The notes below the pieces were generated by a model. It was given only the letters and a program-made list of their open reading frames with translations, was not told the DNA's origin and did not search any database. A stretch of DNA of 64,000 nucleotides, taken from positions 20,894,001 through 20,958,000 of the forward strand of contig OZ336901.1 of NCBI GenBank assembly GCA_965287045.1. Direction: 5' to 3'. Position numbers and translations under genes: made by a program. This DNA comes from Carcharhinus amblyrhynchos. Its lineage: Eukaryota. This document shows positions 56,030 to 64,000 of the stretch, one piece after another (within the stretch, counting starts at the first letter, position 1; each line of letters opens with the position of its first letter).

Positions 56030-56890
56030 ACATAAGAACATAAGAAATAGGAGCAGGAGTAGGCCATCTAGCCCTTCGAGCCTGCCCCGCCATTCAATAA
56101 GATCATGGCTGACCTGTCGTGGCTCAGTTCCACATTCCCGCCCTCTCCCCATAACCCTTAATCCCCCTCTTATCAAAAACCCATCAACCCGCGTCTTAAA
56201 AATATTTAGCGAGGTAGCCTCCACCACTTCAACGGGCAGAGAATTCCAGAGACTCACCACCCTTTGAGTGAAGAAGTTCCTCCTCAACTCCGTCCTAAAC
56301 CGCCCCCCCTTTATCTTGAGGCTGTGCCCCCTAGTCCTACTATCCTTTCTGAGCGGGAAGAGTCTCTCCACCTCTATCCTATCCATCCCATTCATCATCT
56401 TATACGTCTCAATGAGATCTCCCCTCATTCTTCTAAACTCTAACGAGTACAAGCCTAATTTATTCAGCCTCTCCTCATAGCTCAACCCCCTCAACTCCGG
56501 CATCAGCCTAGTAAACCTCTTCTGCACTCCCTCCAAGGCCAAAATATCCTTGCGTAAGTACGGCGCCCAAAACTGCGCACAGTACTCCAGCTGCGGCCTC
56601 ACCAATGCCCTATACAGCCGCAGCAAGACCTCCCTACTTTTATATTCAATCCCCCTTGCTATGAAGGCCAGCATCCCATTAGCCTTCCTGACCACCTGCT
56701 GCACCTGCAAGCTGGGTTTTTGCGACTCATGCACAAGGACCCCGAGGTCCCTCTGCACCGTCGCCTGCTGCAGTTTTTCGCCACGTAAGTAATAATCCTT
56801 CCTACCATTATTCCTACCAAAGTGGACCACCTCGCACTTGCCAACATTAAATTCCATTTGCCATTTCCTGGCCCATTCGCCCAGCCTATC
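56030..56890 (-). mobile_element. 5'-truncated copy of the same young CR1 family
   Basis: Near-identical to about 59833-60701; the match stops abruptly at 56890 (cccagcctatc). Confidence 0.95.
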
Positions 56891-57949
56891 GTGTGGTGTG
56901 ATAAATTTACAATACTGCAGAAACTTTACAGCAACATTGTAAAAGGCTGAACGTCTGACAGTTGGGGTCTCAGATGTAGAATCACAAGACCAGGTAGGAT
57001 TCAATAACTTATTTATTGAGAGCTGTTGTGTTTACACTCCTTTATAGAGCATCACAACTGGCACTAACTGAAAGCATATGTGACATACGGAGGTTGTTCG
57101 TCCTCGATTGACTGATAGAAAATCAGTGGCAAAAACATTTTACAGGTGAAACGTGACTGAAATAAATGTGCCAATGCTGGAAATGTACAGCGTCTGAATG
57201 GGATACTTTATTAGATGGAAGTAAAAATTAATTTTTATACAAAAGCTATATTGATGCAAAACTGGCAAAATTAGTGTAAATTTGTCTAAACATCTCTCCC
57301 CTCATCTCATGCATGAAGTCCAACTCCTCCAGTTCCCTGCTGTTGCAAAATTCACTTTCCTTCCCAGATGCGTTAATTTCAAATTTTCTAATCGGGGTTC
57401 CTCCATGACTTTGTCCATACCTATTTCTGCAACCCCTTAAAATTTTTACAGTTTCCTTTCTATTCCCTTCCCGTTTGCTCCATCTTTTGATCCTAGCATC
57501 TTCAACTATCTCACCTTGACTTGATGAAACTTGCTCCTTAAACCCTTTATCTTGCTGCGGCTCTTCTGTGCATCAGAAGCCTGAATCTAGTTGTTCAATT
57601 ATATTTTTGGCCATCACCAAGTTCATGAACGAACGATTTTCAGTGCTTCAATAATTTTACATGTTTGAAGTGCTTTGGGACATTGTTCAATTTTATGCAT
57701 ATAAAATGTGTAGGAACAGCGTTGCTCACGTTCTGCCTCTAATTGATATTAAAAAAGTTGTATACCAACATAAGATATCCATTAATATTAGTTGACGACT
57801 ATAGAGTTTAAGCTGAAAAGAAGTATGTTTCTCAGGCTCAATAATTGCACTCTGAACTTTTGGAGTTGGCTTAATTTTTTTGTGACTTGACCCTTAAAAG
57901 TCTGCTTGGAGTTTTGTTATGTGCTGTATGTATTCTATTATTTATTTTA

Positions 57950-58212
57950 TTGATTATTGTCACAGGCCTACGTTAAAAATGCAATGAAGTTCCTGTGAAA
58001 ATCTCCTAGTTGCCACACTCCGGCACCTGTTTGGGTACACTGAAAGAGAATATAGCATGGTCAATACACCTAACCAGACTGTGGGAGGAAGCCGGAGCAT
58101 CCAGGGGAAACTCGTGCAGTCATGGGGAGAGCGTGCAGCCTCTGCAGAGATAGTGGAAATTAAACCCGGGACCTTGGTGCTATGAGGCAGCAGTGTTAAC
58201 CATTGTGCCATC
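57950..58212 (-). mobile_element. Tail-B SINE
   Basis: ttattgtcacaggcctacgttaa...tgcaatgaagtt...gaggcagcagtgttaaccattgtgcc. Confidence 0.82.
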
Positions 58213-58654
58213 ATTCTGCCCATTGTATTCTGTGTGCTGTCTAGGGCTATCTGTTGTGCAGTCAAAGTTATCCACTTACTCTGCATTTGTAACCAGCAAA
58301 CACATAGGTGATGCTTCAAATTATGGAGGTCAGAGTGGGATGAGCTGACAGAATGGAAACACAAAGCAATGTGCTTAAGTTAGCTTTGGATAATTATATT
58401 AATTTTCATATTGTTTTGTACTTTTAAAAATAAATTAAACGTTGATGCTAAGAGAGAAGTCCACGGTTTTGTTTTGCTAGTTTTTTTTTGAAAGCAAAGG
58501 TTAGTATCCAGCAAAGGTAGAGTGGCTGCCATGACCACTTGCTTTCACATATTTGCTGTGCACTGACTCAAACTTGTAGCTAACTATAGTGAATCAAAAT
58601 TATGTCCTAATTTCAGATCATTCCCAGAACTTAATATTAAATATTAATTATTAG

Positions 58655-59420: not shown

Positions 59421-59933
59421 ATTGGGAAACATAAATACAAACCTTTTATGCATCAAGTATGAAGCTGTTTTTGGTGTGATTGGTTTATAACTGAATTGCA
59501 GATATCATTGGGTAACATTGTAGAACTTGGTCCTGGGAAAAATTCAAAAGTTGATATTGTCATAGACATACAAAGGAGCAGTGGGGTGTAGCCAATAATG
59601 CCACAGTGAAAGTGTGCAATGAATGTCATGAATAATCTGTTCCAATTACAATGCAATTGTCTTCAGAAGGCTGGATTGACTACAAATTACAGCAACTACA
59701 CATACACCCAGCAATTTAAGAAAAGTATGAGAGCTGCTGTTTTTCCACTCCCAGCAACTGCTGCTGTTCTTCTGCCATTCACTGATATTCCCAGAAGCTC
59801 AGCATTTCTTGGGGTTCTTATCAGCTTTGAAATAACATAAGAACATAACATAAGAAATAGGAGCAGGAGTAGGCCATCTAGCCCTTCGAGCCTGCCCCGC
59901 CGTTCAATAAGATCATGGCTGATCTGTCGTGGC

Positions 59934-62741
59934 TCAGTTCCACTTTCCCGCCCTCTCCCCATAACCCTTAATCCCCTCTCTTATCAAGAACCCATCAACC
60001 CGCTTCTTAAAAATATTTAGCGAGGCAGCCTCCACCACTTCAACGGACAGAGAATTCCAGAGATTCACCACCCTTTGAGTGAAGAAGTTCCTCCTCAACT
60101 CCGTTCTAAACCGCCTCCCCTTTATCTTGAGGCTGTGCCCCCTAGTCCTACTGTCTTTTTTGAGCGGGAAGAGTCTCTCCACCTCTATCCTATCCATCCC
60201 ATTCATCATCTTATACGTCTCAATGAGATCTCCCCTCATTCTTCTAAACTCCAACGAGTACAAGCCTAGTTTATTCAGCCTCTCCTCATAGCTCAACCCC
60301 CTCAACTCCGGTATCAGCCTAGTAAACCTCCTCTGCACTCCCTCCAAGGCCAAAATATCCTTGCGCAGGTGCGGCGCCCAAAACTGCACACAGTACTCCA
60401 GCTGCGGCCTCACCAATGCCCTATACAGCTGCAGCAAGACCTCCCTACTTTTATATTCAATCCCCCTCGCTATGATTGCCAGCATCCCATTCGCCTCCCT
60501 GACCACCTGCTGCACCTGCAAGCTGGGTTTTTGCGACTCATGCACAAGGACCCCGAGGTCCCTCTGCACCGTCGCCTGCTGCAGTTTTACGCCACGTAAG
60601 TAATAGTCCTTCCTACCATTCTTCCTACCAAAGTGGACCACCTCACACTTGCCAACATTAAATTCCATTTGCCATTTCCTGGCCCATTCGCCCAGCCTAT
60701 CTAGATCCTTCTGCAGACTCTCCACACCCTCCGCACAATTTGCCTTTCCCCCAATCTTGGTGTCATCAGCAAATTTCGACACCCTACACTCGGTTCCCTC
60801 CTCCAGATCATCTATATAAATGGTAAATAGCTGAGGCCCCAGCACCGACCCCTGGGGCACCCCACTAGTCACCAACCGCCAATCCGAATAGCACCCATTG
60901 ACCCCCACTCTCTGCCTCCTATTTGACAACCAATCCTCTATCCACGCTAACACCCTACCCCCAACTCCATATCCCCTGACCTTCTGCAATAACCTCTTGT
61001 GAGGTACCTTGTCAAACGCCTTCTGAAAATCCAGAAAGACCACATCCACCGGCTCTCCTCTATCCACTGCCCTAGACACATCCTCATAGAACTCCAGTAA
61101 ATTTGTCAGACACGACTTCCCTTTAATGAAACCGTGTTGCGTCTGCCCTATCGAGGAATTCCCTTCAAGATGCCTCGCAATTTCCTCCTTAATGACGGAT
61201 TCTAACATTTTACCTACCACAGACGTTAAACTAACCGGCCTATAATTCCCCGCCTTTTGCCTGGCACCCTTCTTAAACAACGGCGTAACACTAGCCGTTT
61301 TCCAATCTTCCGGCACTTCCCCGGAATCCAGCGACGTCTGGAAAATAACCACCAAGGCATCCACTATCACCTCTGCCATTTCTTTCAGAACCCTCGGATG
61401 CATTCCATCCGGTCCTGGGGACTTGTCCACAATCAGCCCCTCCAGTCTGTCGAGCACCACCTCTCTAGTAACAGTAATGTCATTAAGACCCTCCAGTCCT
61501 ACCACCTTTCCATCGCTAACACCCGGCAAATTATTCACGTCCTCCTCCGTGAAGACAGAAACAAAAAAGTTATTCAAGACCTTAGCCATATCCCCATCCC
61601 CTACCACTAGGTCCCCTTTCTCATCCTCTAAAGGACCAACATTCACCCTAGCCAGCCTCTTCCTTTTTATATATTTATAAAAACTCTTGCTATCCTTTTT
61701 TAAATTAAGCGCTAGCCCAGCTTCATAGCTTCTTCTACCCTCCTTTATCAACTTCTTTGTCAATCTTTGTTGACATTTAAACCTTTCCCAATCCTCTTCT
61801 TGCCCACTGCTCTTAGCTACTCTAAATTCCTCCACTTTTAATTTAACACTTTCCTTCACCTCCTTCGTTATCCACGGCTTATTACCTCTCCTCCTACGGT
61901 CCTTTTTGACCATCGGAATAAATTTCTGCTGAGCACCAAGAAAGATCTCCTTAAAGATCCTCCACTGCTCCTCAGCAGACCTACCTTCCAACGCGCTCCC
62001 CCAGTCCACATTCACCAATTCTTCTCTCATCCTACCATACTCCCCTCTATTCAAACAAAGGACGCGTGTCCGGGAACCCACTTTCTCCTCCTCCATCTGC
62101 ACCAGAAACTCCACCATACAATGATCACTCTCTCCAAGAGGATCCTTCACCACAAGGTCCCTAATTCTACCCGCCTCATTACATAGCACCAGATCCAAGA
62201 TAGCTCGCTCCCTCGTCGGCTCCAACACACACTGTTCAAGGAAATTATCCCGGCAGCATTCCAAGAACTCCTCCTCGAGCCCACCTCGTCCAACATGGGT
62301 CGACCAATCAATATGCAGATTGAAATCCCCCATAACTACTGCCGTCCCATTCCTGCACGCCGCACTTATTTGCGAGTTAACAGCCTGCCCCACCTCCAGA
62401 TCATTATTCGGGGGCCTATAGACGACACCCACCAGCGTCTTCCTCCCTTTGCTGTTCCTAATCTCCACCCACGATTCCACTTTCTGCTCTTTGGCTCCGA
62501 TATCATCCCTTGCTACCACCTTGATACTATCCTTAATCAGCAGAGCTATGCCACCCCCTCTTTCCTCCTCCCTATCCTTCCTAAACACTTGATAGCCCTG
62601 TACATTCAGCTCCCAGTCCCTGTCACCTTGCAGCCACGTCTCTGTAATGGCCACCAGATCGTATCCATTTGTGTCGATCTGCGCCACCAGCTCATCCACT
62701 TTATTCCGAATGCTTCGTGCATTCAGATGAAGCGCTTTCAT
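59934..62741 (-). CDS. CR1 ORF2: APE-like endonuclease plus reverse transcriptase
   Basis: EN motifs NARS, AITETWL, VVYRPP, GDFN, LDLVL, SDH; RT motifs YRPVSLTS, QHGF, DFQKAFDKV, GVPQGSVLGP, FADD. No stops. First ATG at 62741 (the track start 62753 is GTG); the frame is open upstream to 62882. Confidence 0.95.
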   Translation of the reverse strand: MKALHLNARSIRNKVDELVAQIDTNGYDLVAITETWLQGDRDWELNVQGYQVFRKDREEERGGGIALLIKDSIKVVARDDIGAKEQKVESWVEIRNSKGRKTLVGVVYRPPNNDLEVGQAVNSQISAACRNGTAVVMGDFNLHIDWSTHVGRGGLEEEFLECCRDNFLEQCVLEPTRERAILDLVLCNEAGRIRDLVVKDPLGESDHCMVEFLVQMEEEKVGSRTRVLCLNRGEYGRMREELVNVDWGSALEGRSAEEQWRIFKEIFLGAQQKFIPMVKKDRRRRGNKPWITKEVKESVKLKVEEFRVAKSSGQEEDWERFKCQQRLTKKLIKEGRRSYEAGLALNLKKDSKSFYKYIKRKRLARVNVGPLEDEKGDLVVGDGDMAKVLNNFFVSVFTEEDVNNLPGVSDGKVVGLEGLNDITVTREVVLDRLEGLIVDKSPGPDGMHPRVLKEMAEVIVDALVVIFQTSLDSGEVPEDWKTASVTPLFKKGARQKAGNYRPVSLTSVVGKMLESVIKEEIARHLEGNSSIGQTQHGFIKGKSCLTNLLEFYEDVSRAVDRGEPVDVVFLDFQKAFDKVPHKRLLQKVRGYGVGGRVLAWIEDWLSNRRQRVGVNGCYSDWRLVTSGVPQGSVLGPQLFTIYIDDLEEGTECRVSKFADDTKIGGKANCAEGVESLQKDLDRLGEWARKWQMEFNVGKCEVVHFGRKNGRKDYYLRGVKLQQATVQRDLGVLVHESQKPSLQVQQVVREANGMLAIIARGIEYKSREVLLQLYRALVRPQLEYCVQFWAPHLRKDILALEGVQRRFTRLIPELRGLSYEERLNKLGLYSLEFRRMRGDLIETYKMMNGMDRIEVERLFPLKKDSRTRGHSLKIKGRRFRTELRRNFFTQRVVNLWNSLSVEVVEAASLNIFKKRVDGFLIREGIKGYGERAGKWN

Positions 62742-62877
62742 CCCAGCCTTCACCTGGACCCTATTTGCCGTAACGCCACCAATTGGGACATCCTCGGCCT
62801 CTTCCCTTACCTGTACCCTATCCTTAACTTTAGACCTCGTAACGTCACCTACCCTCGCACCCTCCCCCCCCCCCCAA

Positions 62878-63810
62878 TTAGTTTAAAGCCCTGTCTACAG
62901 TCCTCTTTACTCGATTCGCCAGCACTCTGGTCCCAGCACGGTTCAGACCAACCCCATCCCACCCGAACAAGTCCCACCTACCCCAATACTGGTGCCAATG
63001 CCCCATAAATTCGAACCCATTCCTCCCACACCAATCCCTGAGCCACCCATTCACTTCCTTTATCCTGTTAACCCTACGCCCGTCTGCACTCGGTTCAGGC
63101 AGTAGCCCAGAGACGACCACCTTGTCGGTTCTACTTTTTAATTCCATTCCCAGCTTCTCATACTCCCTCCCCAGATCCCCAGTCCGCACTTTGCCTACGT
63201 CGCCGGCACCCACATGTACTACAACGACCGGGTTCTCACCCTCCCACTCCAGATTCCTCTGCAGCCCAGCTGCGACATCCTGTACCCGAGCACCAGGCAG
63301 ACAACACACCCTTCTGTGCACTTTGTCATTGTGACAAAGGACAGTGTCAATACCCTTCACCCCACTATCCCCAATCACTACTACGTTCCTTTTCCCCTTC
63401 TCTTTGCCTATGTCCTGCTGCATCACTGTACCGTGTGCAGTTTGCTCACCAACCTCACCTGCCTCGTCCTCTTCCAGAGTGGAAGCAAGAACCTCAAACC
63501 TGTTATGCAGATTAAGAGGCTGAGGCCTCCGCTCCTCACCCCCCTTCCTCCTCCCAGCAGCCCCCTTTTGTCCCTGACCCTTAGATTTAGCCAGCCTAGT
63601 GGGGGTGGATGTCACTTGCACCCCATTGACAATGGCACCCTCTCTCCTCCTGATGAGCCTCAGTGTCTGTAGCTCAGAGGCCAGCTCATCCACCCTGAGC
63701 TGGAGCTCTTCCAGCAACCTGCACTTACTGCAGACATGGTCACTGGGAAGGACCCTGGGGTCCACCAGTTCCCACATCATACAGAAATCACACATCACAT
63801 GCCCCTCCAT
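62878..63810 (-). CDS. CR1 ORF1: CxxC...CxxC zinc finger/leucine zipper plus SGNH/GDSL esterase-like domain
   Basis: CDFC...CSKC followed by the heptad LLEELQLRVDELASELQTL; VVVIGDS, CLPGA and VVVHVG blocks; ends RALN*. Confidence 0.92.
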   Translation of the reverse strand: MEGHVMCDFCMMWELVDPRVLPSDHVCSKCRLLEELQLRVDELASELQTLRLIRRREGAIVNGVQVTSTPTRLAKSKGQGQKGAAGRRKGGEERRPQPLNLHNRFEVLASTLEEDEAGEVGEQTAHGTVMQQDIGKEKGKRNVVVIGDSGVKGIDTVLCHNDKVHRRVCCLPGARVQDVAAGLQRNLEWEGENPVVVVHVGAGDVGKVRTGDLGREYEKLGMELKSRTDKVVVSGLLPEPSADGRRVNRIKEVNGWLRDWCGRNGFEFMGHWHQYWGRWDLFGWDGVGLNRAGTRVLANRVKRTVDRALN

Positions 63811-64000
63811 TATTCACTGTAATTTTTTATGGGGAAAAAATTTTTTTCCTTGTTTCCTGCTGTAGTAGTTTTGAAAAAATTTTTTTTCCTTGTTTTTTCA
63901 AACAAACTCACCTGGCCTTTTTTCCTTCAAGCCCTTTTTGATATTAAGCCCTATTAGCTCACTCTGCTTCCCACTCACTCCGCTGCCCGCTCAGACGCTG

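Follow-up and report, generated by a model that had tools for sequence, protein, structure and literature searches.

A young, full-length copy of a CR1 long interspersed nuclear element (LINE) lies on the minus strand at the end of a 64,000-nucleotide stretch of Carcharhinus amblyrhynchos DNA (NCBI GenBank assembly GCA_965287045.1, contig OZ336901.1, positions 20,894,001 to 20,958,000; hereafter the window, with positions counted from its first base). The second open reading frame (ORF2) of this CR1 family is probably (about 80%) produced by programmed -1 ribosomal frameshifting as a fusion to the first (ORF1), because the family keeps the slippery heptamer U_UUA_AAC and a stop codon at the end of ORF1, with ORF2 open in the -1 frame. 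The heptamer, the -1 frame, an open linker between the two reading frames, conservation at the codon level and the lack of a conserved AUG were all observed directly. An ORF1-ORF2 fusion comparable to retroviral Gag-Pol had been proposed from the window letters alone (the original prediction), and the modal -1 frame and the codon-level lock on the heptamer lend support to it. Judging from its named ORF1 relatives (sharks, rays, and birds) and its anatomy, the element is an esterase-type vertebrate CR1 LINE.

In the window copy, ORF1 ends with GCT TTA AAC TAA, which places TTTAAAC (62887-62881) in X_XXY_YYZ phase. The heptamer is followed by TAATT, a run of 12 G (62875-62864), A-GGG-TGCGA-GGG, and a TAG codon (62851-62849), and phase, spacer, G-rich stretch, and TAG agree letter for letter with the original prediction. 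ORF2 of this copy is in the +1 frame relative to ORF1 and is open from 62882, 47 codons before the ATG at 62741. This open frame and the G12 run had also been read correctly, but both are features of the window copy and not of the modal family form, which carries A followed by nine G (A+G9). Thus the window copy does not have ORF2 in the -1 frame and open from the heptamer, whereas the modal family form and the relatives do. The TAG at 62851-62849 closes the -1 frame here only as a result of two surplus bases in the G-run. Slippage, either in reverse transcription or at a later replication, is the most likely source of this gain, with an assembly error as the alternative. The window copy would no longer be able to make the fusion, although reinitiation at ATG 62741 would in principle still give access to its ORF2.

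Family junctions were counted with a genome-wide pattern made of the heptamer, a spacer of free length, and the sequence that follows the G-run; it matched 3058 places. A DNA search with the junction as query favors copies similar to the G12 form and inflates the +1 frame, and was replaced by these pattern counts and by an ORF1-only query. The modal spacer was 10 bases long, mostly A+G9 (1600 of 3058 junctions, 52%), two bases shorter than in the window copy, and placed ORF2 in the -1 frame. It had been anticipated that a spacer equivalent to 10 G would join the -1 frame to ORF2 and that the length of the G-run might be copy-specific or an assembly indel; the family mode agrees with the former, and G12 in the window is off the mode. 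In the commonest form (A before nine G), the TAG closes the +1 frame and the -1 frame is open. Of the first 30 pattern loci, 29 could be mapped: the -1 frame was open in 12 and contained a stop in two, and ORF2 was in frame 0 in eight and in the +1 frame in seven. The 30 loci from the ORF1-only query comprised 16 that were open in -1, 10 in +1, and four in frame 0. Seven family copies were taken to full length, including two (L298 and L299) that were stop-free from the heptamer to the ORF2 stop and are 98.2-98.3% identical to the window copy; another (L297) had one stop, three had many stops, and one was without an ORF2 end. Two subfamilies differ by a 30-nt indel in the linker.

On a tree of 73 rows that was built without the G-run, on reference-projected columns and from a sample that favored window-like copies, frame labels changed 30 times vs. 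32.7 times in shuffles, and the +1 label was slightly clustered (22 of 500 shuffles were equally low). Off-frame copies are therefore scattered over the family, which suggests that frame loss is mostly recurrent slippage in the G-run and that the source elements are in the -1 frame. In two DNA runs, the A before the G-run was present in 59 and 67% of the contig depth, and the sole junction-bridging contig in each of two presumed-RNA runs had the A+G9 form; both are weak indications from contigs, and the RNA status of the latter runs is a guess.

The heptamer is conserved as DNA beyond Leu-Asn coding in diverged shark families and in bird-type CR1s, a check that the original prediction had called for. 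Loci were drawn from diverged families of the same genome and from bird-type CR1s in metagenome contigs and were selected on the protein ending only; 132 of 179 ended in Leu-Asn-stop. Among these, Leu was encoded by TTA in 131 and Asn by AAC in 131, and the codon preceding Leu ended in T in all 132, across nine codon forms and a variable residue. The stop was TAA in 60, TAG in 53, and TGA in 19, each of which is read as Leu in the -1 frame. By comparison, a control invariant Leu uses five different codons, and TTA represents 8% of the ORF1 Leu codons (23 of 288). The original prediction had named an ORF2 outside the -1 frame in the consensus and synonymous changes in the heptamer of active relatives as observations that would speak against frameshifting, and neither was found. 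The heptamer may instead be kept for the C-terminal Leu-Asn of ORF1, or as a packaging or processing signal in RNA or DNA, with the frame relation as a by-product. The C-terminal Asn is indeed nearly invariant from sharks to birds, and 24 of 28 ORF1 proteins end in Leu-Asn. However, a need for this protein end would permit six Leu codons, two Asn codons, and any preceding third base, and virtually no variation is seen; furthermore, in distant relatives the spacing between the last helix and Leu-Asn or Gly-Asn varies, and the alignment of the solved ZfL2-1 esterase stops at profile position 314 of 318, yet this protein folds. This explanation is thus very unlikely.

The frame of ORF2 was also determined in relatives, for all loci with an ORF2 match. 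Eleven of the 45 bird-type loci remained after exclusion of those without an ORF1 end (18), at a contig edge (3), or without an ORF2 match (13), and all 11 were in the -1 frame, 10 of them open. Diverged sets of the same genome were in the -1 frame in 9/12, 14/20, 14/20, and 19/20 loci. In 17 representatives with an ORF2 match, which had been picked as in-frame copies, linkers ranged from 89 to 344 nt and all 17 were 2 mod 3; 16 were stop-free in the -1 frame, both other frames contained stops in all, and shuffled linkers were stop-free in 0-37% of trials. Shared linker variants among 106 related copies introduced no stops in the -1 frame vs. four and five in the other frames. As a separate observation, seven clustered similar copies on one small contig (L148-L153 and L155; G000 contig C46) have linkers of 346-348 nt, and four of them carry one common frame change in the linker and were probably duplicated after insertion.

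Several observations weigh against frameshifting. Of the family junctions, 48% are off the modal length, and two older-copy sets are mostly off-frame, with -1 in 4/12 (a set dominated by one contig) and 4/18 loci. In the latter set, 11 of 18 older copies (L180-L199) are in frame 0, which is above the family-wide share; their linker lengths are mixed, and decay is assumed. The loci are not independent and represent approximately seven shark lineages and a few bird-type ones. Shared linker variants are synonymous only modestly more often than rare ones (16 of 38 vs. 31 of 113; Fisher p 0.11, not significant), and a stable downstream hairpin was not found: 18 of the 19 representatives had folding z-scores close to 0. 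In 12 of 17 representatives the linker contains or ends with at least one Met ahead of the first endonuclease motif, and in the window family the endonuclease starts precisely on an ATG with G at position -3, so that reinitiation is possible in both cases. The frame-0 copies would fit a joining of the two ORFs by stop-codon readthrough, which G-quadruplexes can also promote (PMC3919603), and RNA-level slippage or splicing would have a similar outcome. On the other hand, the frame-0 copies differ in linker length, as decay predicts, all three stop codons occur at the ORF1 end, and the family-wide modal frame is -1. In addition, the G-run lies 3' of the stop, so slippage there cannot fuse the ORFs, and no joint was present in the contigs of the two presumed-RNA runs. 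Joining by any of these routes is hardly credible.

Termination followed by reinitiation at a linker AUG or a near-cognate codon would yield a separate ORF2 protein with the open linker as an N-terminal extension. This route has been proposed for other LINEs, namely L1 and SART1 (PMC5972666), and is consistent with the purine at -3 of ATG 62741 and with the 6 of 14 off-frame copies with broken junctions that keep ORF1 and the 5' part of ORF2 open. However, reinitiation leaves the codon lock on the heptamer and the -1 frame over many linker lengths unexplained. The Met positions differ between representatives, five of the 17 have no Met before the first endonuclease motif, and the position equivalent to ATG 62741 is Met in 3/17 and Leu or Ile in 14/17. 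Among the shark families, an ATG at the endonuclease start occurs only in the window family, where the out-of-frame ATG 62791 precedes it. No AUG overlapping or adjoining the ORF1 stop, as in SART1, was found, and the first ATG in any frame of the window family is 84-86 nt past the stop. Reinitiation is therefore considered unlikely as the route to ORF2, and programmed -1 frameshifting is preferred.

Downstream of the heptamer, GGGGG occupies +11 to +15 in 103 of 129 junctions and is followed by R-N-GG; the conserved tract has G at synonymous third positions of the -1 frame. With the stop codon in the A site, the G-tract would start approximately 7 bases further on, which is a usual distance for a stimulator. 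An Rfam search of the junction gave no family at threshold. The original prediction considered an RNA G-quadruplex as the stimulator, and this variant of frameshifting agrees with a three-tier pattern that sits 5-8 nt behind the heptamer in the window family, the same spacing at which a G-quadruplex behind UUUAAAC gave up to ~7% -1 shifting in vitro (PMC3919603). Nevertheless, three-tier structures are possible in just 4 of 19 representative junctions, all of the window lineage, and two-tier ones in 9 of 19. The pattern is absent from three B-type shark families and from seven of eight bird-type junctions, and the long G-run is interrupted in older subfamilies. A G-quadruplex as the general stimulator is thus doubtful; it does not appear to be the conserved element, and the junctions keep the G5 tract instead, at a constant spacing. 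Pairing of the G-tract with the 3' untranslated region (UTR) of the same element was rejected as a general mechanism because no matched-family excess was found over eight groups; the family A 3' UTR was the best partner of the family A tract, yet it was also the best partner for the tracts of most families. In B-type families (L137, L139, L160, L174, and L175), a second G-run lies just 5' of the heptamer; this run grows longer in old copies and exceeds 150 bases in L174 and L175.

Under the proposed mechanism, most ribosomes would terminate at the ORF1 stop, and a few percent would slip back by one base while the heptamer is occupied by tRNA-Leu and tRNA-Asn. By the standard tandem-slip rule, the fused CR1 peptide would read Ala-Leu-Asn-Leu-Ile and not Phe-Lys-Leu, which replaces the FKLIGGG junction given in the original prediction. 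The predicted fusion has ~1290 residues (310 + 982), and the slipping minority would set a high ORF1:ORF2 ratio in the manner of Gag-Pol. A weaker part of the model is the origin of the pause, which may lie in the combination of the adjacent stop codon and the G5-R-N-GG tract at its fixed distance; the tract would probably act as a protein-binding site or as a structure unlike those screened here. In the window family, a G-quadruplex could add to the pause. If the fusion is real, CR1 ORF2 annotations have the wrong start, the reverse transcriptase carries the esterase and RNA-binding parts along, and retrotransposition constructs need an intact junction. A natural frameshift site with an unusual stimulator would then also be present in vertebrate genomes in very high numbers.

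The ORF1 proteins of distant relatives mostly end in Gly-Asn. Among the 150 best ORF1 profile hits, 108 were complete proteins, of which 54 ended in Leu-Asn, 19 in Gly-Asn, and 3 in Lys-Asn (76 in all), and 77 of 108 ended in a dipeptide that can be encoded by a slippery heptamer, vs. an internal dipeptide background of 4.5%. The slip site may be older than jawed vertebrates, because Gly-Asn and Lys-Asn would be encoded by G_GGA_AAC and A_AAA_AAC. DNA for the Gly-Asn relatives was found neither in viral contigs nor among 20 own-genome loci checked, and a search of genome contigs gave bacterial SGNH hydrolases only (L220-L296, excluded from all counts). Three Gly-Asn-type proteins that have lost the stop (P0042, P0043, and P0157) run on into Gly-rich residues, a hint, from protein alone, of a G-rich tract there. 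The longer ORF1 relatives are eight bird gene models with partial ORF1 and reverse transcriptase domains; these are probably gene-prediction joins and were not used. A broader proposal is tentative, with somewhat less than an even chance: esterase-type CR1s across animals would make a Gag-Pol-like ORF2 fusion at a site of at least jawed-vertebrate age, and probably older, with the stop codon and a protein-bound G-tract as stimulators in place of an RNA structure, and mutation of the tract would cost about half of the new copies the fusion.

The features of the window copy are listed in Table 1. Its 5' boundary, common to other copies, corresponds to window-equivalent position 64215. ORF1 matched PF13472 with an E-value of 2e-5, short of the curated cut-off, and its alignment profile matched the structure of the ZfL2-1 ORF1 esterase (4C1B) with an E-value of 5e-41. 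The named ORF1 relatives are from sharks, rays, a chimaera, and birds. The short 3' UTR with tandem short repeats at its end and the frequent 5' truncation in the family are as in esterase-type CR1s. ORF1 is shorter than related proteins (310 vs. 318 residues) and shares with P0001 a gap that follows the coiled-coil region (63580-63640, minus strand). A 5'-truncated copy of the same family (56030-56892, minus strand), with the C-terminal part of ORF2 and the 3' UTR, lies 3 kb downstream in the same orientation, and the sequence at ~58000-58225 (minus strand) resembles, by eye only, a tRNA-derived short interspersed nuclear element.

Table 1. Features of the CR1 copy in the window.
Feature	Position	Strand	Remark
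CR1 LINE copy, young, full length	59834..64000	-	5' end ~215 bases past window end
5' UTR, 3' part	63811..64000	-	
ORF1, 310 aa: Cys-rich N-terminus and SGNH esterase domain, C-terminal Ala-Leu-Asn-stop	62878..63810	-	
Slippery heptamer U_UUA_AAC in ORF1 phase	62881..62887	-	codon-level fixed across families
ORF1 stop codon, TAA in window copy, directly 3' of heptamer	62878..62880	-	
G-tract, window copy: G12 (62875-62864) then A-GGG	62860..62875	-	modal family form A+G9
TAG closing -1 frame in window copy	62849..62851	-	
Linker, 136 nt in window copy	62742..62877	-	predicted coding in -1 frame; 134 or 164 nt in in-frame copies
First in-frame ORF2 ATG, at endonuclease domain start	62739..62741	-	
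ORF2, APE endonuclease and reverse transcriptase, intact in window copy	59934..62741	-	PF03372, PF14529, PF00078
3' UTR, ends in short TTCTTATG-type repeats	59834..59933	-	

No description of a frameshift at the CR1 junction was found in the literature searched; a remark on the overlap may exist in early work on chicken and turtle CR1. The word "frameshift" is absent from the main text of PMC13343379, PMC3905857, PMC8665684, and PMC3708506 and, in the text available of PMC11835228, is applied only to retroviruses. The available text of a review on frameshifting (PMC5009743) does not contain "CR1" and treats mammalian LINE ORF2 as novel initiation. Translation of the second ORF of LINEs has been termed an open question, for which the text available lists reinitiation, internal ribosome entry sites, and 2A and no frameshift (PMC3894237).

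Most vertebrates have CR1 as their dominant retrotransposon (PMC13343379). The canonical vertebrate CR1 of that survey has the same two ORFs, with an SGNH esterase in ORF1 and APE endonuclease and reverse transcriptase in ORF2, and a short repeat tail; in contrast, the main text of the survey also lacks "overlap" and "translation", and the junction signal is not described there. A precedent for -1 frameshifting to ORF2 in a non-LTR element is Dictyostelium TRE5-A, which, together with TRE3-A, is an APE-type non-LTR element stated to need a -1 frameshift for ORF2 (PMC5911963), although these elements belong to another clade and host and have a different ORF1. L1 and SART1 share a bicistronic LINE RNA and low-level ORF2 with CR1, but they make a separate ORF2 protein, with UAAUG in SART1 (PMC5972666), whereas CR1 fixes the frame and the heptamer and not an AUG. 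The U_UUA_AAC sites of coronavirus 1a/1b and retroviral Gag-Pol likewise have an in-phase heptamer at the end of the structural ORF and the polymerase ORF in the -1 frame; the CR1 junction differs in having no detected downstream hairpin, an immediate stop, and a G5 tract at a fixed distance. Arteriviruses and cardioviruses, with their protein-activated frameshifting, likewise have a short motif ~10 nt past the slip site and no obvious strong structure. The motif is C-rich in these viruses and G-rich in CR1.

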